Below, one piece after another: positions 7,472 through 18,612 of a stretch of DNA of 64,000 bases (within the stretch, counting starts at the first letter, position 1; every line of letters begins with the position of its first letter). Both the position numbers and the translations under genes were made by a program. The notes below the pieces were generated by a model. That model did no database searches and was not told where the DNA came from. It saw nothing but the letters and a program-made list of their open reading frames with translations. Origin of the DNA: Chloroflexaceae bacterium (GTDB taxonomy: Bacteria; Chloroflexota; Chloroflexia; Chloroflexales; Chloroflexaceae). Location of the stretch: assembly GCA_012033195.1 (NCBI GenBank), contig JAAUSQ010000001.1:5565-69564 (forward strand), written 5' to 3'.

Positions 7472-10400
7472 ATGAACAAAACCGCACCCGGCATCTATGA
7501 GCAAACGCTCTATGACCCACGGTACGAGCACGATGCTTGCGGCATCGGCTTTGTGGCTCGTATCAATGGTCAGCCCGATCACGCCCTTCTCACGAAGGCG
7601 TTGACCGCACTGGCGAACCAGAAACATCGCGGCGCAGTAGCAGCCGATGCCAAAACCGGCGATGGTTCGGGCATTCTGACGCAGCTTCCGAAAACATTGT
7701 TGCTGCGCGAGTTAAAACGCCAGGGTGTGGAGGCCGATGCTGCGGATCTTGCGGTGGGGATGCTGTTCCTACCGCAGGATGCAGCCGGTGTGGAAGCAAG
7801 CCAGCAAATTATTGAAGCCGAGTTGACGCAGCGCGGCCTGACGGTGCTGGCGTGGCGCACTGTGCCCGCCGACGACGAGGCGCTGGGGCAGCGGGCACTG
7901 GAGATGAAGCCGACGATCAAGCAGGTGCTTATCACGCGGCCTGCTGGCTTGAACGACGAAAACTACGAACGCACGCTGTATGTAGCACGCAAGGCGATGG
8001 AACGCACCTTCACTGAGCAGCAGCTTTCAACCTATATTCCGTCGCTATCGTCGCGTACCATCGTTTACAAAGGCCTGTTAATGGGGCCGTATCTGGCAGA
8101 TTTTTATTACGACTTGCGCGACCCTGACTATACCACCGCGCTGGCTGTCTACCACGAGCGCTATTCAACCAACACGTTCCCAACCTGGGAGCGTGCACAG
8201 CCATTCCGAATGCTCTCGCATAACGGCGAGATTAACACCTTGCAGGGTAATGTCAACTGGATGCGTGCCCGCGAGAGCCGCCTGTACTTCCCGCAGATTT
8301 CCGGTCTGGCCCGTGAGTTGCCCACCGATGTTACGCCGGTGATCGCCCCACGCGGCAGCGACTCGGCGGCCCTCGATAACGCGCTGGAACTGATGGTACA
8401 GGGTGGGCGCGATATTCGCCACGCGATGGCTATGCTGGTGCCCGAAGCGTGGGAGCACGTGCCCGATATGGATGCCAACCTGCGTGCCTTTTATCAGTAT
8501 CACGCATGCCTCAGCGAGCCGTGGGACGGCCCGGCTGGTCTATCGTTCTCGGATGGACGCATTGTCGGCTCCACGCTCGACCGCAATGGCCTGCGTCCGG
8601 CACGCTTCCTGGTCACCCGCGATGGTTTGGTGGTCAGCGGCAGCGAGGCGGGGGTGGTTGAGGTGGACGATGCCGAAGTGATGCTGCGGGGACGGCTTGG
8701 CCCTGGGCAGATGCTGGCGGTTGACACACAGGCGGGGCGTGTCTATACCAATGCCGATATCAAGGCCGAACTTGCCAACCGTCAGCCGTATGCGGAATGG
8801 ATCGCGCAGCATATGCGACGGCTGGAAGATTGCCCCCTGCCAACCGATTACACGGTGGAACACAACGATGCCGAGCGCCGCACCGCGTTGCAGATGGCCT
8901 TCGGGTATACCAGCGAAGAGCTAAACGTTATTCTCAAGCCGATGCAGCGCGATGGCAAAGAGCCGGTCGGTTCGATGGGCGACGATACGCCGCTCACGGT
9001 GTTCTCGCAGGTCGATCCGGGTCGCCCGATTTACCAGTTCTTCAAGCAACGGTTTGCCGAAGTGACCAACCCGCCGATGGACCCGCTGCGCGAAGAAATG
9101 GTGATGTCGCTCAGCATTGGCCTGGGTAAGCGCGGCGACCTGCTGGACGAAACGCCAGAGCACGCGCATTTGCTGCAACTCACCTCGCCATTCCTGACCA
9201 ATGTGCAACTTGAGGCAATCCGCGCTGTTGACGACCCGCTCTTCAAGACAGCAACAATTTATGCGCTTCAGCCGGTTGGTGCGGATGAGGACGACGAAGC
9301 CGCCGAGCGTGTGATGCGTCGGGAGCTTGACCGCCTGCGCCGCGAGGCTGTGCAGGCCGTGCGCGATGGAGCCGCGATCATTATCATCAGTGACCGGGGC
9401 GTAGACGAGCAGCACGCCCCGATCCAGACGATGATTGCACTCGGTGCCGTCCACCATCACCTGATCCGGTCGGGACTGCGAACCAATGTCAGCCTGGTGG
9501 TGGAAAGCGGCGAACCGCGTGAAGTGCATCATATGGCCTGTCTGATCGGGTATGGAGCCGAGGCAATCAATCCGTATCTGGCACTTGAAACGGTCCGGGC
9601 AATGGCCTTCGGGTTGAGCCGGGGCAGGGGGGCAACCAACGGCACCAACGGCAACGGGGTGCACAGTAATGGCAACGGCTCACACAGCGCCGATCTGCTT
9701 GGGGACGATCTGGTGCGAACGGAAGAGGCCGAGGCCGAGCGCAACTATATTGAGGCGCTTGAAAAGGGCGTACTCAAGATTATGTCGAAGATGGGCATTT
9801 CGCCGCTCGATAGCTACTGTGGGGCGCAGATCTTCGAGATCATCGGACTGGATGATGCGATCATCAACGCGTGTTTTGCAGGCACCCCTCGCCTGTTGGT
9901 GGCATCGGCTACCGCGAACTGGCGCACAAAGTGCGCTCACGCCATGCGCGGGCCTTCAACCTGCCCGAAGGCGAAAAGGTTGATCTGCCGCACCCTGGCT
10001 TCTACAAGTTCAAGAAGAACGGCGAAGTGCACAGCTATAGCCCGCAGGTCATCCACGCAGCACACAAGGCGGCTCGCCACGCGATGGACGTAACAGGCGG
10101 CTTGTACCCGTCGATGGACACGGCCCTGCCGCAGTTCCAGGAGGGCTACGGCCACTACCGCGAGTACTCGGCCCTGATTGACCAGCGCCCGCCAACCGAA
10201 CTGCGCGACCTGCTGGAGATGCTGCCGGCTGGCCCACCGGTGCCGCTCGAAGCAGTGGAGCCAATAGAGGCCATTCTGAAGCGCTTCAGCACGGCAGCGA
10301 TGAGCCTGGGCGCAACCAGCACCGAGGCCCACGAAACACTGGCGATTGCGATGAACCGGCTGGGGGGGATGAGCAACAGCGGCGAAGGCGGCGAGGACGA

Positions 10401-12204
10401 GGCCCGCTTCCGTGACGAGCGCAACAGCAAGATCAAGCAGGTGGCATCGGGGCGCTTCGGTGTCACTCCGGCCTACCTTGCCAATGCTGCCGAGCTTCAG
10501 ATCAAGATGGCGCAGGGCAGCAAGCCGGGTGAGGGCGGTCAGCTTCCGGGGCACAAGGTTAGCGCCGAGATTGCCCGCATTCGCCATACCACGCCGGGGG
10601 TATCGCTGATTAGCCCGCCGCCGCACCACGATATCTATAGCATCGAAGACCTGGCACAACTGATTTACGACTTGAAGCAGGTCAATGCCGGGGCGCTGGT
10701 GTCGGTCAAGCTGGTGGCGACGGCAGGCGTGGGCACGATTGCAGCGGGGGTAGCGAAGGGCTACGCCGACTTGATCCTGATCAGCGGGCACAACGGCGGC
10801 ACGGGTGCTTCCCCGCTCAGCAGCATCAAGAATGCCGGCGTATCGTGGGAACTGGGCCTTGCCGAAACCCAGCAGACCCTGATCATCAACGGGTTGCGTG
10901 GGCGGGTACGTTTGCGTGCCGACGGTGGCTTGCAGAACGGGCGCGACGTGCTGATCGCGGCGCTGCTTGGTGCCGATGAATATTCATTTGGCACTACCGC
11001 CCTGATTGCCGAAGGGTGTTTGATGGCGCGGGCCTGCCACAACAATACCTGTCCAGTGGGCATCGCCACCCAGCGCCTCGACCTGCGCGCCAAGTTTCCT
11101 GGTACACCCGAAATGGTCATGGCCTTCTTCCGCTATGTCGCGCACGAAATCCGCGAACTGCTGGCAAGCCTGGGCCTGCGCTCGCTGGAAGAGGCGGTCG
11201 GGCGCACCGACCTGCTGCGACAGCGCACCACGGGCGTTGCCGAGGCCGATGCGCTGCGGCTGCACAAGTTGCTGGCGCTGCCGGCCAACTTTGCACAGCA
11301 GGAAATCCGGCACGCGGGCGAGCGCAACCCGCTTCCGGTCGGTGAGACGTTGAACGACCGTCTGTTGCAGGATGCACAGCCTGCCCTGGAGGGGCGCGGC
11401 TCGGTTGAACTGAATTACACCATCCGCAACTGTGAGCGGACGGTTGGGGCGCGGCTGTCGGGTGTGATCGGGCAGATGTATGGCGACCATGGCCTACCAT
11501 CTGACACCATCCGCATCAACCTGCGGGGGAGTGCAGGCCAGAGCTTCGGCGCATTTAATGCACCGGGCGTTAGCTTCCATCTGATTGGTGAAGCCAACGA
11601 CTATGTTGGTAAGGGTATGGCAGGTGGCACGATTGCTATTCACCCGTCGCGTGAGGCCGCCTATGCATGGCACGAGAATGTCATTGCAGGTAACACCATT
11701 CTGTATGGGGCGACGGGTGGCGAACTCTACCTTGCTGGACGGGTTGGCGAGCGCTTTGCCGTCCGCAACAGCGGTGCTACTGTGGTGGTCGAAGGCGTGG
11801 GCGACCACGGCTGCGAGTATATGACGGGTGGCACAGCGGTCATTTTAGGATCGACGGGCTACAACTTTGGCGCAGGTATGACCGGCGGCGTGGCCTTTGT
11901 GCTCGATGTTGAAGAGCGGCTGCCCATCCGCTACAACCGTCAGCTAGTGCAGCTTGATCGGCTAAACCAGCAGGATCAGGAGCGACTGCGCGAACTGGTG
12001 CAGCGCCACGCCGACCTGACCGGAAGCCCGCGTGCTGCCGAGATCCTGGCAAACTGGGCCGCCTATGTCCCGCTGTTCTGGCGTGTGATGCCACGAGAAA
12101 TGGTGGCCCGCATCGAGGCGCAGAACGCAGGCACCCAGGAGGGCGGCACGGCGACCTATGACGATGCCACCCACCCCGCACCGAAGGCAGCGGCAGTAGT
12201 GTAA
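7472..12204 (+). pseudogene. gltB: glutamate synthase large subunit (GltB / Fd-GOGAT-like) interrupted by one single-base frameshift (likely assembly error)
   Basis: ORFs 7472..10093 and 9871..12204. Ntn-amidotransferase start ...YEHDACGIGFV. FMN domain motifs SKPGEGGQLPG and ISGHNGGTGASP. C-terminal GXGXG domain VVEGVGDHGCEYMTGG. The frames join at the CCCC run 9885-9888 (...INACFAGTP|SPVGGIGYRELAHK...). The span is 4733 nt, one base short. No gltD follows. Confidence 0.9.
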
Positions 12205-13962: not shown

Positions 13963-14149
13963 ACCCCGGAACGGCATCTTTTTATGACGTGCTCGATACC
14001 ACAGGGCGCTGCGTTGTCTGTACCGTGCGTGGTATAGATAGCGACCCGTGCACCGCCCGTTGCTGGGATCTAGCGCCCAATAGCCAGATTCACGCCGCAG
14101 GAGGTGCTTCTGTGTAAGGGTATGCACAGAACACGGTTATTTGCCTCTG

Positions 14150-14183
14150 GCGTGAAGTGTGGGCACTTCACGCTTTTTGTTTT
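14150..14183 (+). terminator. rho-independent terminator-like hairpin plus T-tract
   Basis: Perfect 10-bp stem GCGTGAAGTG / CACTTCACGC, loop TGGG, followed by TTTTTGTTTT. Confidence 0.6.
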
Positions 14184-14207
14184 CGCTACACATAGAATGA
14201 GGTCAGC

Positions 14208-14438
14208 ATGAACAAGCTTGAGCTTGTCCTGAAGGAAGAAACACACAGCATCTACGACACAGCGACTATGGAAGCACTCTTTGCATGCATCGACCGCCTG
14301 CACGACTATGCAGCGGCAGGTCGGCTGCACGAAGTAACCACGCTGAGTACCGAGGAGCTTCAGGGCTGGCTCGAAGACTTGATTTACACGGCCCGCGAGA
14401 CACTGCACGAGATGGGCACGACACGGCGCGGACAGTAG
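14208..14438 (+). CDS. hypothetical small protein (76 aa)
   Basis: ORF with TGAGG 6 nt before the ATG. No recognisable motif. Confidence 0.4.
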   Translation: MNKLELVLKEETHSIYDTATMEALFACIDRLHDYAAAGRLHEVTTLSTEELQGWLEDLIYTARETLHEMGTTRRGQ

Positions 14439-14579
14439 GCTGCCAACAATATTGCACCATGCTCGACCGTTTCCCATACGGCCCGAGGAGTTCGGACAGT
14501 CCGTGCGATTCGGCTGTCGCGGAACTGACCAGCACCGAATCAGAACGGGGATACCAGTACGGTATCCCCCTTGTTGTAG

Positions 14580-16113: not shown

Positions 16114-16207
16114 TGGTCAGGCCGGTCGGATTTGAACCGACACCTCCGACATGGCACGTCGGCAGGCTGCCCTTGACGCCACGACCGCTCGAACACCCTC
16201 GCGCCTG
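16114..16207 (-). tRNA. tRNA-Gly(GCC)-like, aberrant 5' half (possible pseudogene)
   Basis: The 3' part is canonical: anticodon arm CCGAC-GUGCCAU-GUCGG, T arm GUCGG-UUCAAAU-CCGAC, 3' acceptor CGGCCUG-A73-CCA. The best 5' acceptor strand (CAGGCGC) pairs only 5/7. About 38 nt occupy the place of a roughly 20-nt D region. Confidence 0.45.
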
Positions 16208-16211
16208 TCTA

Positions 16212-16286
16212 TGGTCCATCCGGCAGGTTTCGATCCTGCGACCCCCGGTGTTTCAGACCAGTGCTCTGCCGCTGAGCTACGGATGG
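16212..16286 (-). tRNA. tRNA-Phe(GAA), CCA encoded, variant T-loop
   Basis: Acceptor CCAUCCG/CGGAUGG, A73. Anticodon loop CUGAAAC. D arm GCUC-AGCGGCA-GAGC. T loop AUCGAAA (A54 instead of U54). Confidence 0.8.
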
Positions 16287-16287
16287 C

Positions 16288-16364
16288 TGGTACCCCCGGC
16301 ACGACTCGAACGTGCAACCCTCGCTGTGTAAGAGCGATGCTCTGACCAATTGAGCTACGTGGGC
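16288..16364 (-). tRNA. tRNA-Val(UAC), CCA encoded
   Basis: Acceptor GCCCACG/CGGGGGU (one A-G mismatch, one G-U), A73. Anticodon arm UCGCU-CUUACAC-AGCGA. T loop UUCGAGU. Confidence 0.8.
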
Positions 16365-16365
16365 A

Positions 16366-16442
16366 TGGTCGGACTGGCTGGACTTGAACCAGCAACCCCC
16401 TGTGTATCAGACAGATGCGCTGTCCTATTGCGCCACAGTCCG
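16366..16442 (-). tRNA. tRNA-Ile(GAU), CCA encoded
   Basis: Acceptor CGGACUG/CAGUCCG perfect (C1-G72), A73. Anticodon loop CUGAUAC. D arm GCGC-AAUAGGACA-GCGC. T loop UUCAAGU. Confidence 0.85.
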
Positions 16443-16446
16443 GCAA

Positions 16447-16523
16447 TGGTGCGCGGGAGGGGATTCGAACCCCTACTGTACGGTGTTTGAAACCGTTGCC
16501 TCTCCCAGTTGGGCTACCCTTGC
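16447..16523 (-). tRNA. class-I tRNA with Leu anticodon CAA (short 5-nt variable region), weak acceptor stem
   Basis: Anticodon arm ACGGU-UUCAAAC-ACCGU. T arm AGGGG-UUCGAAU-CCCCU. A73-CCA. Acceptor GCAAGGG/CCCGCGC has two mismatches. No long variable arm. Confidence 0.55.
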
Positions 16524-16526
16524 ACA

Positions 16527-16598
16527 TCGGTCCGGCGAGACTCGAACCCGCAACCCGTTGTATATAAGACAACCGCTCTGCCATTGAGCTACAGGCCA
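16527..16598 (-). tRNA. tRNA-Ile(UAU), the only array member without encoded CCA
   Basis: Anticodon arm GUUGU-CUUAUAU-ACAAC (perfect). D arm GCUC-AAUGGCA-GAGC. T loop UUCGAGU. Acceptor UGGCCUG/CGGACCG (one mismatch, two G-U), A73 followed by UGU. Confidence 0.65.
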
Positions 16599-16600
16599 TC

Positions 16601-16679
16601 TGGCTGGCCCGGCGGGACTCGAACCCGCACGTGGGTGACTTAGAAGGCACCTGCTCTCCTTCCATTGAGCTACGAGCCA
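16601..16679 (-). tRNA. tRNA-Arg(UCU)-like with one extra base in the anticodon stem
   Basis: Acceptor UGGCUCG/CGGGCCA, G73-CCA. D arm GCUC-AAUGGAAGGA-GAGC. Anticodon region GGUGC-CUUCUAA-G(U)CACC has a bulged U. T loop UUCGAGU. Confidence 0.6.
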
Positions 16680-16691
16680 TATTCTGGTGTG

Positions 16692-16767
16692 TGGTGCTCC
16701 CGGCGGGACTCGAACCCGCACCACACGGTGTTTAAGACCGTTGCCTCTGCCATTGGGCTACCGGAGC
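16692..16767 (-). tRNA. class-I tRNA with Leu anticodon UAA (short 5-nt variable region)
   Basis: Anticodon arm ACGGU-CUUAAAC-ACCGU (perfect). T arm GCGGG-UUCGAGU-CCCGC. A73-CCA. Acceptor GCUCCGG/CGGGAGC (one G-G mismatch). 3-bp D stem. Confidence 0.65.
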
Positions 16768-16771
16768 ACAG

Positions 16772-16858
16772 TGGTGTGTCAGGTCGGATTCGAACCGACT
16801 CAGCCAAACGGCGACGATATTACAGACCGCTGAGGCTCTCCCGCGCCCGTGCTGACAC
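16772..16858 (-). tRNA. tRNA-Tyr(GUA), class II, CCA encoded
   Basis: Acceptor GUGUCAG/CUGACAC perfect, A73. Anticodon loop CUGUAAU. 14-nt variable arm CGCCGUUUGGCUGA. T loop UUCGAAU. The D region is somewhat irregular. Confidence 0.75.
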
Positions 16859-16899
16859 ATACAATATCAATGATTCTTATTTGAACACATCTTTGCCAA

Positions 16900-16977
16900 T
16901 GGTGCCCCCGGCAGGACTCGAACCTGCACTGCACGGTGTCTGAGGCCGCTACCTCTGCCGGATTGGGTTACAGGGGC
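16900..16977 (-). tRNA. class-I tRNA with Leu anticodon CAG (short 5-nt variable region)
   Basis: Acceptor GCCCCUG/CGGGGGC, A73-CCA. Anticodon arm GCGGC-CUCAGAC-ACCGU (31-39 C-A mismatch). T arm GCAGG-UUCGAGU-CCUGC. The D arm is paralogous to those of 16447 and 16692. Confidence 0.65.
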
Positions 16978-16979
16978 AC

Positions 16980-17055
16980 TGGAACAGGAGCCTGGATTCG
17001 AACCAGGATCAGCGATATTCAGCGCATCGTGTCCTCCCATTGAGCCGACTCCTGT
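16980..17055 (-). tRNA. tRNA-like gene, anticodon probably CUG (Gln) but with a non-canonical loop (G33) and U73
   Basis: Perfect acceptor ACAGGAG/CUCCUGU and perfect T arm CCUGG-UUCGAAU-CCAGG plus CCA. Anticodon arm CGAUG-CGCUGAA-UAUCG has G at position 33. The D stem has one mismatch. Confidence 0.45.
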
Positions 17056-17056
17056 G

Positions 17057-17131
17057 TGGCTGGGGGCGAAGGACTCGAACCCTCATCAGCCGGGTCAAAG
17101 CCGGGTATCCTGCCGTTAGACGACCCCCCCA
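17057..17131 (-). tRNA. tRNA-Gln(UUG), one extra G in the 5' acceptor run
   Basis: U1-A72 and G73 as in bacterial tRNA-Gln. 3' acceptor GCCCCCA-G-CCA. The 5' strand is U followed by G7 (C7 run 17124-17130), one base too many. Anticodon loop CUUUGAC. T loop UUCGAGU. Confidence 0.7.
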
Positions 17132-17138
17132 GTATGTG

Positions 17139-17213
17139 TGGTCCCCCTGGAAGGATTTGAACCTCCAACCCTGCGGGTAAGAGCCGCCTGCGCTGCCGTT
17201 GCGCCACAGAGGG
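17139..17213 (-). tRNA. tRNA-Lys(CUU), CCA encoded
   Basis: Acceptor CCCUCUG/CAGGGGG, A73. Anticodon loop CUCUUAC. D arm GCGC-AACGGCA-GCGC. T loop UUCAAAU. Confidence 0.8.
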
Positions 17214-17216
17214 AAC

Positions 17217-17291
17217 TGGTACCGCCAGAGGGACTCGAACCCCCACCTCATCGCTTAAAAGGCGCGTGCTCTTGCCTTGAGCTACAGCGGT
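17217..17291 (-). tRNA. tRNA-Lys(UUU), weak anticodon stem
   Basis: Acceptor ACCGCUG/UGGCGGU, A73-CCA. Anticodon loop CUUUUAA on a stem with only 3 Watson-Crick pairs (CGCGC/GCGAU). D arm GCUC-AAGGCAA-GAGC. T loop UUCGAGU. Confidence 0.65.
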
Positions 17292-17292
17292 G

Positions 17293-17367
17293 TGGAGCCT
17301 CGCGCAGGAATTGAACCCGCAACCATCGCCTTACAAGAGCGTTGCTCTACCATTGAGCTAGCGAGGC
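17293..17367 (-). tRNA. tRNA-Thr(UGU), CCA encoded
   Basis: Acceptor GCCUCGC/GCGAGGC perfect, U73. Anticodon loop CUUGUAA. D arm GCUC-AAUGGUA-GAGC. T loop UUCAAUU. Confidence 0.8.
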
Positions 17368-17371
17368 ATTG

Positions 17372-17446
17372 TGGTAACGGAGGGTGGACTTGAACCACCG
17401 GCCTCCAGGATATGAACCTGTTGCGCTGCCGCTGCGCCACTCCGTC
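17372..17446 (-). tRNA. tRNA-Met(CAU), elongator type (or Ile2/lysidine substrate)
   Basis: Acceptor GACGGAG/CUCCGUU, A73-CCA. Anticodon loop UUCAUAU. Lacks the initiator GGG/CCC anticodon-stem signature and the C1-A72 mismatch. T loop UUCAAGU. Confidence 0.75.
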
Positions 17447-17455
17447 ACAGAAGGT

Positions 17456-17483
17456 GTGGCCCGCTGGAGGCGGTGCGGGCCAC
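17456..17483 (-). other. GC-rich 9-bp hairpin inside the longest intra-array spacer
   Basis: GTGGCCCGC / GCGGGCCAC perfect inverted repeat with a 10-nt loop. It lies in the 48-nt gap between tRNA-Glu and tRNA-Met. There is no U-tract. Confidence 0.5.
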
Positions 17484-17494
17484 GCGAAAGATTG

Positions 17495-17569
17495 TGGCAA
17501 CCCCGGCGGGAATTGAACCCGCGCTGCTCGCTTGAAAGACGAGCGTCCTGACCATTAGACGACGGGGCC
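17495..17569 (-). tRNA. tRNA-Glu(UUC), CCA encoded
   Basis: Acceptor GGCCCCG/CGGGGUU, G73. Anticodon loop CUUUCAA. D arm GUCU-AAUGGUCA-GGAC (Glu-like). T loop UUCAAUU. Confidence 0.8.
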
Positions 17570-17571
17570 AC

Positions 17572-17645
17572 TGGTGGATCGGCGGGGAGTTGCACCCCGA
17601 TCTCTGCGGTGCAAGCGCAGTATCCTCCGATTAGACGACCAACCC
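17572..17645 (-). tRNA. tRNA-Ala(UGC) with G3:U70, variant T-loop UGCAACU
   Basis: Acceptor GGGUUGG/CCGAUCC contains the G3:U70 alanine identity pair, A73-CCA. Anticodon arm CUGCG-CUUGCAC-CGCAG. T arm CGGGG-UGCAACU-CCCCG (G at position 55). Confidence 0.8.
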
Positions 17646-17649
17646 ACAT

Positions 17650-17724
17650 TGGCGCTCCAGAAGGGTTCCGACCCCTCTACTCCTGTTCGACAGACAGGGA
17701 TGATAGCCACTTCACCACTGGAGC
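17650..17724 (-). tRNA. tRNA-Asp(GUC), variant T-loop GUCGGAA
   Basis: Acceptor GCUCCAG/CUGGAGC perfect, G73-CCA. Anticodon arm CCUGU-CUGUCGA-ACAGG. T loop GUCGGAA (G54, G58). Confidence 0.75.
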
Positions 17725-17728
17725 ATAC

Positions 17729-17805
17729 TGGCCTCGCCAGAAGGACTCGAACCTTCAGCCTCCACCTTCGCACGGTGGCACCCTTTCCGCTTGGGCGATG
17801 GCGAG
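17729..17805 (-). tRNA. tRNA-Arg(GCG), CCA encoded
   Basis: Acceptor CUCGCCA/UGGCGAG perfect, G73. Anticodon arm CCACC-GUGCGAA-GGUGG (perfect stem; G34 rather than the usual A34/I34). T loop UUCGAGU. Confidence 0.75.
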
Positions 17806-17808
17806 GAA

Positions 17809-17881
17809 TGGCTGCCGCACCCTCGAACCGGGCACCGCTGCCTTCGGATGGCAGCGCCCTTTCCTGCTGGGCGCTACGGCA
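17809..17881 (-). tRNA. tRNA-Arg(CCG) with a truncated T arm
   Basis: Acceptor UGCCGUA/UGCGGCA, G73-CCA. Anticodon arm CUGCC-AUCCGAA-GGCAG. D arm GCCC-AGCAGGAAA-GGGC. Only 18 nt lie between the anticodon stem and the acceptor, giving a 3-bp CCC/GGG stem around GGUUCGA. Confidence 0.55.
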
Positions 17882-17885
17882 ACAT

Positions 17886-17959
17886 TGGCAGCGAGGAAGG
17901 GACTCGAACCCCTACCACGTGAGTAACAATCACGCGCCCTACCGTTAGACGACCTCGCT
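17886..17959 (-). tRNA. tRNA-Asn(GUU), CCA encoded
   Basis: Acceptor AGCGAGG/CCUCGCU perfect, G73. Anticodon arm CGUGA-UUGUUAC-UCACG. T loop UUCGAGU. Confidence 0.8.
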
Positions 17960-17963
17960 CCAC

Positions 17964-18040
17964 TGGCAGATGGGAGTGGACTCGAACCACTACGACGCAG
18001 TGTTGGAGACTGCTGCTCTGCCCCATTGAGCTACCCATCT
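17964..18040 (-). tRNA. tRNA-Trp(CCA), CCA encoded
   Basis: Acceptor AGAUGGG/CCCAUCU perfect, G73. Anticodon arm GCAGU-CUCCAAC-ACUGC. D arm GCUC-AAUGGGGCA-GAGC. T loop UUCGAGU. Confidence 0.9.
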
Positions 18041-18043
18041 GTA

Positions 18044-18121
18044 TGGTCGAGGCGACTGGATTCGAACCAGTGATCACTGCGCTCCAAACGCAGGATGTTG
18101 ACCAAGCTACACCACACCTCG
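18044..18121 (-). tRNA. tRNA-Pro(UGG), CCA encoded
   Basis: C1-G72 and A73 as in bacterial tRNA-Pro. Acceptor CGAGGUG/CGCCUCG. Anticodon arm CUGCG-UUUGGAG-CGCAG. T loop UUCGAAU. Confidence 0.85.
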
Positions 18122-18125
18122 GCAA

Positions 18126-18213
18126 TGGCGGGAGAAGCAGGAGTTGCACCTGCAAGGCATAAGCTCGCCCGTTTTCAAAGCGGGTGCCGTCGCCTGCCCT
18201 CGGCTAGACCTTT
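18126..18213 (-). tRNA. tRNA-Ser(UGA)-like, class II, with unpaired 5' acceptor strand and variant T-loop (possible pseudogene)
   Basis: Ser-like D arm UA-GCC-GAGGGCAGGCGAC-GGC. Anticodon loop UUUGAAA. 14-nt variable arm. T arm GCAGG-UGCAACU-CCUGC. 3' strand UUCUCCC-G73-CCA. The 5' strand reads AAAGGUC instead of the expected GGGAGAA. Confidence 0.45.
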
Positions 18214-18220
18214 CATCTTG

Positions 18221-18311
18221 TGGCGGAGGATGGGCGGATCGAACACCCGCGCCAGTCTGCCCGGCGGCCTTCTCTTAGCAGGAGAGCACATTGCCCCTCT
18301 GTCAATCCTCC
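18221..18311 (-). tRNA. tRNA-Ser(GCU), class II, CCA encoded
   Basis: Acceptor GGAGGAU/AUCCUCC perfect, G73. Anticodon loop CUGCUAA. 21-nt variable arm. 3-bp D stem. T loop UUCGAUC. Confidence 0.8.
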
Positions 18312-18315
18312 GCAA

Positions 18316-18390
18316 TGGACACCCCGACTGGATTTGCACCAGCGTCTGGCGGGTTGCAACCGCCTGCCTGTTCTGCTCGGCAACGGGGTG
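18316..18390 (-). tRNA. tRNA-Cys(GCA), variant T-loop UGCAAAU
   Basis: Acceptor CACCCCG/CGGGGUG perfect, U73 (the Cys discriminator), CCA. Anticodon arm GGCGG-UUGCAAC-CCGCC. T arm GCUGG-UGCAAAU-CCAGU (G at position 55). Confidence 0.75.
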
Positions 18391-18424
18391 CCAGAAATGG
18401 CGATGCAGTTGTTAAGGTTCCGGG

Positions 18425-18501
18425 TGGGGTGACGGACGAGATTCGAACTCGTGTCCTCTGTGTTCACAGCACAGCGCTCTCGCCACTGAGCTAACGCCAC
18501 C
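18425..18501 (-). tRNA. tRNA-His(GUG) with encoded G-1 and C73, CCA encoded
   Basis: G-1 plus GUGGCGU / CCGUCAC-C73-CCA (one U-C mismatch at 7-66). Anticodon arm CUGUG-CUGUGAA-CACAG. D arm GCUC-AGUGGCGA-GAGC. T loop UUCGAAU. Confidence 0.85.
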
Positions 18502-18583: not shown

Positions 18584-18612
18584 AGTGTAGCATAGCTCTT
18601 TATAGTTGTCAA
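18584..18612 (-). promoter_or_regulatory. sigma70-type promoter of the tRNA array
   Basis: Minus strand has TTGACA (18612-18607), a 17-nt spacer and TACACT (18589-18584). It lies about 75-80 nt upstream of the tRNA-His 5' end. The leader contains the hairpin CGACCG-N6-CGGTCG (18521-18538). Confidence 0.65.

Follow-up and report, generated by a model that had tools for sequence, protein, structure and literature searches.

How can a transfer RNA (tRNA) give up the very bases at which its D and T loops meet and keep the corner that they build? G18, U55, U54 and A58 count as invariant bases of cytoplasmic tRNA, and they are substrates of TrmH, TruB, TrmA and TrmI. The question is raised by a 64,000-nucleotide stretch from a Chloroflexaceae bacterium (contig JAAUSQ010000001.1 of assembly GCA_012033195.1, positions 5,565 to 69,564 of the forward strand), which, at its full length, we call the window, and whose minus strand carries a crowded array of tRNA genes. 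Five of these genes depart from the usual bases of the elbow. Our answer, which we think probable, is a joint one: these are genes of a long tRNA array (L-array) that have taken up an alternative elbow, one whose contacting bases have changed together as pairs, with the function of the tRNA kept and, possibly, with evasion of nucleases as the benefit.

The tRNA genes were called with ARAGORN and scored against the Rfam tRNA covariance model (RF00005, gathering score 29 bits). The five genes are these.

16212..16286, minus strand: tRNA-Phe(GAA), called by ARAGORN; T arm GCAGG-AUCGAAA-CCUGC, loop 16228-16234, with A54 and A58

17572..17645, minus strand: tRNA-Ala(UGC), called by ARAGORN; T arm CGGGG-UGCAACU-CCCCG, loop 17588-17594, with G55

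17650..17724, minus strand: tRNA-Asp(GUC), called by ARAGORN; T arm GAGGG-GUCGGAA-CCCUU, loop 17666-17672, with G54 and G58

about 18126..18214, minus strand: Ser(UGA)-like gene, not called by ARAGORN; T arm GCAGG-UGCAACU-CCUGC, loop 18142-18148, with G55

18316..18390, minus strand: tRNA-Cys(GCA), called by ARAGORN; T arm GCUGG-UGCAAAU-CCAGU, loop 18332-18338, with G55 and one G-U pair in the stem

An initial annotation of the window had read G55 in the UGCAACU or UGCAAAU loops of Ala, the Ser(UGA)-like gene and Cys, GUCGGAA in Asp and AUCGAAA in Phe, and on re-reading every one of these bases is as it said. Logan contigs from two DNA sequencing runs of stromatolite metagenomes cover all five genes with identical T loops; at other sites they differ from the window, indels included. 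(Both runs come from one study and may represent the source sample.) Because independent contigs of the two runs agree at the T-loop sites, the variants are not assembly errors, and the earlier claim that they are base substitutions rather than indel errors stands. At these sites the contigs have the variant bases and not UUCAA, and orthologues in related genomes keep the Cys and Asp variants.

None of the five genes has the canonical elbow (U54, U55, C56 and A58 with G18 and G19), and all five retain G19:C56. Among the three with G55, Cys is the only clean case: its D loop, GAGCAGAACA (18369-18378), has A18 G19 in place of G18 G19, and the U73 discriminator and CCA are there. The D loop of the Ser(UGA)-like gene contains CAGG (A18 G19), which also makes a matched A18:G55 elbow, and that of Ala reads AAUCGGA (about 17626-17632), with no A preceding the Gs. 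Asp (G54:G58), whose D loop AGUGGCUA is canonical, and Phe (A54:A58) are clean variants of the 54:58 pair. The stems of Cys, Ala, Asp and Phe are intact, those of Ala perfectly so, and identity elements are retained (G3:U70 in Ala, U73 in Cys); the scores against the tRNA model, 53.9 bits for Ala, 45.2 for Cys, 45.7 for Asp and 61.7 for Phe, all lie above the gathering score. Elsewhere in the genome, all 45 of the 45 non-array tRNAs have canonical UUCRA T loops, so that variation at 54, 55 or 58 is found in 5 of 26 array genes and in 0 of 45 others (Fisher p = 0.005).

Do the loops change alone, or do their partners change with them? The array was searched for in 40 relatives and then in the whole family, 78 genomes, the top BLAST candidates of each genome being scored. 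Related arrays are present in seven of the 78 (G001, G003, G014, G007 with two loci, G045, G046 and G013), eight loci in all, set among unrelated flanking genes, as is expected for a mobile array. From the window and these loci, 172 array tRNAs could be parsed, 51 of them with a T loop other than UUCRA, at 2-7 variant tRNAs per Chloroflexaceae array locus and in different isoacceptors in different genomes. Thirty have something other than U at position 55, and in all 30, spread over 15 anticodon types, it is G. The initial annotation had proposed that the D loops be looked at for compensating changes at G18/G19, and that is where they are: 29 of the 30 G55 tRNAs have AG (or AC when 56 is G) at the site of the GG, A18 taking the place of G18. 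When 55-56 is G-C, AG stands at 18-19 in 28 of 29, and in 21 of the 29 the D loop is wholly without GG; when it is U-C, GG is kept in 134 of 136. Four tRNAs with U56 have G-A at 18-19, and three with G56 have G-C or A-C. That is, G19:C56 switches to A19:U56 or to C19:G56, and it does so in the related arrays, in phage contigs and in other genomes.

The numbering of D loops can mislead, and we therefore also pooled all unique tRNAs with a 4-base-pair D stem and a 7-nucleotide D loop, in which positions 18 and 19 are fixed. This unambiguous set holds 134 G18:U55 and 41 A18:G55 pairs; U:U, U:G and G:G are seen once apiece (Fisher p = 2e-38, uncorrected for relatedness). A18 thus accompanies G55 in 41 of 43 tRNAs; of the window's three G55 genes, Cys and the Ser-like gene have it and Ala lacks it. 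The third pair behaves likewise: at 54:58 we find U:A, A:U, G:G, C:A, A:A and a single A:G, and U58 occurs only with A54 (22 of 22). Other invariants of tRNA hold in the family arrays, namely G53:C61 (134/135), U8 (121/121), U33 (126/134) and a purine at 37 (133/134).

Orthologues tell the same story gene by gene. Gly-GCC and Arg-GCG are canonical in the window and A18:G55 in G001, at 86-87% identity, and for Ser-GCU and Met, too, the elbow state depends on the genome. Ser-UGA is found in three states on one conserved 3' half: G18G19 with U55C56 in G003, G18A19 with U55U56 in G045 and G046, and A18G19 with G55C56 in the window. Conversely, the Cys genes of the window and of G045/G046 have A18:G55 in common on differing T stems, and the GUCGGAA loop of Asp is common to the window and G003 on different stems (the T stem in G003 is GGCGG/CCGCU), which gives the conservation across genera that an alignment of orthologous arrays had been proposed to look for. 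A18:G55 is likewise retained by Tyr, Thr-GGU and Met in more than one genus. The Phe orthologues of G001, G003, G045 and G046 have CUCGAAA (C54:A58) on the same stem as the window, and the Ala orthologue of G045/G046 has A19:U56 rather than G55. Loops that are kept while stems change, and orthologues that have repeatedly switched as pairs, are what selection for a paired alternative should leave behind.

The swap is not confined to this family. We scanned phage contigs with a T-arm pattern, GGUGCAAAUCC-N11-CCA, and ran the same scan on species genomes. It returned at least 118 phage loci, and of the 118 listed 48 carry G55 tRNAs called by ARAGORN, in almost all of which the D loop has AG and lacks GG; among the matches listed are phage contigs that are nearly wholly converted (14 of 15 tRNAs in L093, and 9 of 20 in L025). 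In the species genomes the pattern brought up converted arrays of Verrucomicrobiota (10 of 10 in L226, 13 of 15 in L245) and of Planctomycetota, as well as single A18:G55 tRNAs in bacteria of the Candidate Phyla Radiation (CPR) and in tRNA-Cys of several archaea. In the archaeal tRNA-Cys(GCA), which comes from several lineages (L157/L280, L171, L181, L252), a D loop reading GAGCAGCUA or GAGUAGCUA faces a UGCAAAU T loop, again A18:G55. On one Thorarchaeota chromosome (CP070761.1, about 943220-943294), the sole tRNA-Cys among the 34 tRNAs detected, in a census that is incomplete, is of this kind, all other parsed T loops being canonical, which suggests that an elbow of this design is fit for ordinary translation. 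The trn operon of Anabaena has one A18:G55 gene, Glu-CUC; the operon is expressed, and the text of the paper does not name the 3 of 26 tRNAs that went undetected (PMC8421152).

A different swap occurs in phage T5, whose tRNA-Ile1 (L139 8211-8287, minus strand) has the T loop UUUAAAU and the D loop AGCGAUCUA, with A19:U56 in place of G19:C56. Its record is annotated as convertible into an amber suppressor, and thus this tRNA works in translation. G55 tRNAs are absent from T5 and from Stenotrophomonas phage Moby, and a phage A18:G55 tRNA-Met had no blastn match among cultured phages. In a full-text search of the open-access literature we found no description of A18:G55 covariation in tRNA. The A18:G55 class is apparently widespread and apparently undescribed, and the window array appears to be a partial member of it.

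What would such a corner look like? T-loop motifs in general consist of a U:A trans Watson-Crick/Hoogsteen handle and a UNR or GNR turn, tRNA being unusual in its U-clamp; in the G-clamp motifs, which include the ATP aptamer, an intercalated base or ligand stacks on the A of the handle and bonds to the G, and in a few per cent of T-loop motifs C:A, A:A or G:G replaces U:A (PMC2615604). The UGCAA that follows the G53:C61 pair in Ala, Cys and the Ser-like gene has the G-clamp signature, U-G-N-R-A closed by a Watson-Crick pair. We propose that three tertiary pairs, 18:55, 19:56 and 54:58, change as pairs. U-G-C-R-A would then be a G-type T loop (a UA handle and a GNR turn) of the sort known from ribosomal RNA (rRNA), riboswitches and the ATP aptamer, in which G55 would clamp the backbone as Ψ55 does and A18 would stack on A58 and bond to G55. 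The L shape would thereby be kept, and the tRNAs would function in translation. In other words, we infer that UGCRA with A18 may be a common RNA T-loop solution transplanted into tRNA.

The likeness to the G-clamp motifs (Jaeger et al., Nucleic Acids Research 2009, PMC2615604) lies in the U-G-N-R-A signature and in the tolerance of C:A, A:A and G:G for U:A, and it may extend to A18, whose proposed contacts with A58 and G55 are those that adenine makes in the ATP/AMP aptamer. The difference is that those motifs come from rRNA, RNase P, riboswitches and the ATP/AMP aptamer and not from tRNA, and that the A18:G55 contact is read from covariation. We hold this structural reading of A18:G55 with fair confidence and, to judge from their sequences, the Cys, Asp and Phe tRNAs of the array are probably working variants. 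In yeast SUP4, single changes in the elbow pairs abolish function (45 of 47 variants; PMC4117946). Crossing between states is therefore costly, which fits a need for coupled changes. UGCAA was also tried as a closed GCAA tetraloop (GNRA) and given up: its closing pair is U-A in Cys but U-C in Ala.

What kind of array is it that holds these genes? We place it, and what looks like its promoter, as follows.

16114..18500, minus strand: accessory long tRNA array, from ARAGORN calls and tRNA-like genes in the gaps

18584..18612, minus strand: sigma-70-like promoter upstream of the array, TTGACA-17-TACACT with TG before the -10, a consensus match only

The array is compact, with 25 genes called by ARAGORN and about three tRNA-like genes (Tyr-GUA-like, Arg-CCG-like and Ser-UGA-like) in its larger gaps, and nearly all of its genes encode CCA. 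The window belongs to a 4.8-Mb metagenome-assembled genome of 430 contigs, and the only runs that contain its sequence are stromatolite metagenomes, with no RNA run among them. Separate from the array, about 45 tRNAs lie dispersed over the genome; because these make up a full canonical set, the array is supernumerary. With 25 plus about three genes in 2.4 kb, it exceeds the size that defines a tRNA array unit or L-array (at least 20 tRNA genes, at least 2 per kb; Tran 2016), and, like L-arrays, it is supernumerary and patchy and bears signs of horizontal transfer. We take it, then, to be a horizontally moving supernumerary L-array of a Chloroflexaceae genome.

In this it resembles the trn operon of Anabaena sp. 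PCC 7120 (Santamaria-Gomez et al., Nucleic Acids Research 2021, PMC8421152) and the tRNA array units of Tran et al. (Genome Biology and Evolution 2016, PMC4758250): 25-28 packed genes for nearly all amino acids, extra to the housekeeping set, patchy among relatives and differently flanked, with weak sequence similarity between the window array and those of Anabaena and Nonomuraea. It differs in that neither paper mentions T-loop or elbow variants, and that induction by translational stress has been shown for Anabaena only.

Why would a mobile set of tRNAs want a second kind of corner? Transfer RNAs with G55 and A18 would be unable to carry Ψ55 or Gm18, and those changed at 54 or 58 would be unable to carry m5U54 or m1A58, in a genome that encodes TruB and proteins of the U5-methyltransferase family. 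Factors that read the standard GUUC corner may fail to recognize such tRNAs, and the main candidates among these factors are T-loop nucleases of the Schlafen/Cash type. One Schlafen nuclease associated with CRISPR, CbCash of a Chloroflexi bacterium (Nature Communications 2026, PMC13462974), cleaves most tRNAs immediately 5' of U55 and is stopped by single substitutions of U54 or U55; whether phage tRNAs are targeted is a point that its authors leave open. CbCash targets the UUC of the T loop, the positions that it needs there, 54 and 55, are among those changed in our variants, and it shares its phylum with the host. We bring it in as a candidate agent of selection, not as something related to the tRNAs, and we identified no Cash orthologue in this genome.

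Phage tRNAs that evade tRNA-targeting defences (Azam et al., Nature Communications 2024, as cited in PMC13462974; PARIS/AriB, PMC12409363) offer a parallel, in that tRNAs of mobile elements differ at the nucleotides that a nuclease reads. There, the change is in the anticodon loop of single isoacceptors; here, it is in the T/D-loop corner common to all tRNAs, and resistance is only putative.

The least certain step is the last one: that the array might supply back-up tRNAs that survive an attack by a T-loop nuclease. A counter-nuclease benefit is our leading candidate for the driver, and it is unproven. In its fullest form, the proposal is that an "orthogonal corner" made by the 18:55, 54:58 and 19:56 swaps keeps mobile tRNA sets working when a nuclease destroys the canonical tRNAs, the Chloroflexaceae arrays being partly converted back-ups maintained by an arms race; this we offer as a tentative idea that may well be wrong.

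The genome has two Schlafen (AlbA_2) proteins, one on C165 (L294 427-2769, minus strand; 780 residues, PHP and AlbA_2) and one on C212 (L295 1033-1974, minus strand; 313 residues), the latter followed by an open reading frame (ORF) with HATPase_c_4 and HTH domains. Genes for RNA repair stand near some of the other arrays. Downstream of the 33-gene array of G003 there is an ATP-dependent RNA ligase of the DraRnl family (L012 1564-2586, minus strand; TIGR02306, 205 bits, above the cut-off); a Ro60/TROVE gene follows each of two A18:G55-rich Verrucomicrobiales arrays (L233 867-2447 and L245 2454-3893, both minus strand); and an RlaP gene, of an RNA-repair pathway, follows a Verrucomicrobiaceae array (L190 3502-4323, plus strand). 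The ORFs tested beside the L093 and L226 arrays belong to no RNA-repair or tRNA-related family (radical SAM, Dam methylase, cytidylyltransferase-like, HNH nuclease, cellulase). The genome of the window has no Ro60 and no Rnl-type ligase, and its RtcB is on another contig. In Anabaena, TrcR represses the trn array, and the text on the TrcR regulon mentions repair of cleaved 16S rRNA and of tRNAs (PMC10272220).

Several observations weigh against an elbow that was selected as a working alternative, and they should be seen together. No more than five of about 28 array genes are variant, a share too small to make the whole array immune to a T-loop nuclease. Sampling of phages and genomes went by T-loop pattern, and the covariation statistics are uncorrected for shared ancestry. 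In Ala, the covariance model numbers the D loop as G18 G19 with position 20 deleted, and homology with the G045 orthologue makes it C18 G19 G20; under either numbering, G55 has no matching A18, and Ala may be a recent or an impaired variant. The Ser(UGA)-like gene has a diverged 5' acceptor strand with three mismatches (two A-C, one U-U), and scores 17.9 bits, below the Rfam threshold; it is probably a pseudogene, the decay of which set in once the elbow had been swapped. The one Schlafen protein that we searched against solved structures had no match, and neither of the two can be called a Cash orthologue, their architectures being different. No RNA-repair gene was found adjoining the window array. 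Finally, A18:G55 also occurs in ordinary single-copy tRNAs, those of the archaeal tRNA-Cys and of CPR bacteria; the swap thus needs no context of phage or defence and could be near-neutral.

That last point leads to the main rival, compensated near-neutral drift, in which the swapped pairs are structurally equivalent, the constraint on redundant and fast-evolving array or phage tRNAs is relaxed and no factor selects anything. We think it unlikely, and it is the alternative that we take most seriously. In its favour, the variants are scattered at a few per locus with isoacceptors differing by genome, the array comes on top of a complete canonical set, housekeeping tRNAs have made the same swap, and the window's Ala and the G18:G55 of Asn in L190 (the one other case that turned up of a G55 that A18 does not match) look like intermediates. 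Drift sits poorly with the cost of crossing seen in SUP4 (PMC4117946) and with arrays such as L093, L226 and L245, whose near-complete conversion is hard to explain without a shared cause acting in trans.

Outright decay, that is, variant genes as pseudogenes of a silent, redundant array with their substitutions as unselected damage, is a good deal less probable still. The state of the Ser(UGA)-like gene speaks for it, as do an Arg(CCG)-like gene with a short T arm, a gene with an 8-nucleotide anticodon loop and the knowledge that L-arrays can hold pseudogenes (3 of 26 in Anabaena, PMC8421152). Damage would hardly have spared the stems and identity elements of Cys, Ala, Asp and Phe, with their 45-62 bits, have limited itself to tertiary partners that co-vary or have left variant loops conserved in orthologues whose stems change. 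The suggestion of the initial annotation, that the elbow is tolerated or selected rather than decayed, is accordingly supported by the covariation, by the orthologues and by the retention of U8 and G53:C61, and does not extend to the Ser-like gene, as a probable pseudogene, or to the unmatched Ala.

Might the variants work outside translation? They could donate amino acids to another pathway, as cell-wall tRNA-Gly does in staphylococci. That non-proteinogenic tRNA, whose T loop reportedly reads UGC (Roberts is said to have described it in 1972), is the natural precedent. It shares with the variants the absence of U55 and G18, and it has lost G19 and C56 as well (U18 or C18, and U19), serves glycine only and is excluded from translation (PMC4574755). 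The variants of the window type keep G19:C56 or swap it as a Watson-Crick pair while 18:55 co-varies, so that the elbow is preserved; they occur in at least 15 anticodon types, and no gene for an aminoacyl-tRNA transferase lies beside the array. The loss of both elbow pairs and the restriction to one amino acid that mark the staphylococcal type are not seen here, and we consider this explanation very improbable.

Error in assembly or sequencing at the T-loop sites we regard as barely worth entertaining. The assembly does have indel problems, which would explain why both the glutamate synthase gene gltB (window 7472-12204, plus strand) and truB (G000 C97 4269-4702) are split into two overlapping frames, and the window and the read contigs differ by indels too. 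The T-loop changes are substitutions on which the contigs of both runs agree, and the same variants come back in independent assemblies of related genomes.

If the reading that we favour, a co-varying alternative elbow on a mobile array, is true, there would be a second workable corner for tRNA, natural and repeatedly evolved, of a design used by other structured RNAs. Whole sets of tRNAs could then forgo the most conserved tRNA modifications, and standard tRNA finders would score such genes low or miss them. A T-loop nuclease of the same phylum that is defeated by changes at the same positions makes counter-defence through a rewired elbow a testable idea. The window, with five of about 28 genes variant, would be a modest instance of all this. 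Its particular value lies in the phylum that it shares with the T-loop nuclease and in the Chloroflexaceae orthologue series, in which the same gene is seen in three co-varying states, evidence of an unusually clean kind.

A few things remain to be said about the neighbourhood of the array and its odder members. The flanking genes of the window array are not common to the related arrays, with the exception of one small ORF (135 residues, window 14070-14477, minus strand), a relative of which (38% identity over 78 residues) lies beside the G001 array at L011 6374-6898, plus strand; the window's 135-residue ORF matched no family. An AAA+ ATPase that neighbours the array gave generic matches only, all under the curated cut-offs.

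Within the array, the tRNA at 16601-16679 (minus strand) has an anticodon loop of eight nucleotides, CUUCUAAG, and is given the anticodon "tcta" by ARAGORN; in G001 and G003 its neighbours are Arg(UCU) genes of the ordinary kind, with loops of seven. The extra base may have come from a real insertion or from an indel of the assembly, at a spot poorly covered by the read contigs. The Arg(CCG)-like gene at 17806-17885 (minus strand), missed by ARAGORN, has a shortened T arm, and the base at 17839 is absent from the contig of one run, so that an assembly indel may be involved in its odd shape.

The Tyr(GUA)-like gene at 16768-16860 (minus strand), also missed by ARAGORN, has the canonical T arm GUCGG-UUCGAAU-CCGAC and, 5' of it, an AT-rich spacer of 40 nucleotides; its orthologues are A18:G55 in four related arrays. 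Three Leu tRNAs (CAA, UAA and CAG; within 16447-16977, minus strand) are 76-78 nucleotides in length and do without the long variable arm, and Leu tRNAs of the same build are found in related arrays and in many phage contigs.

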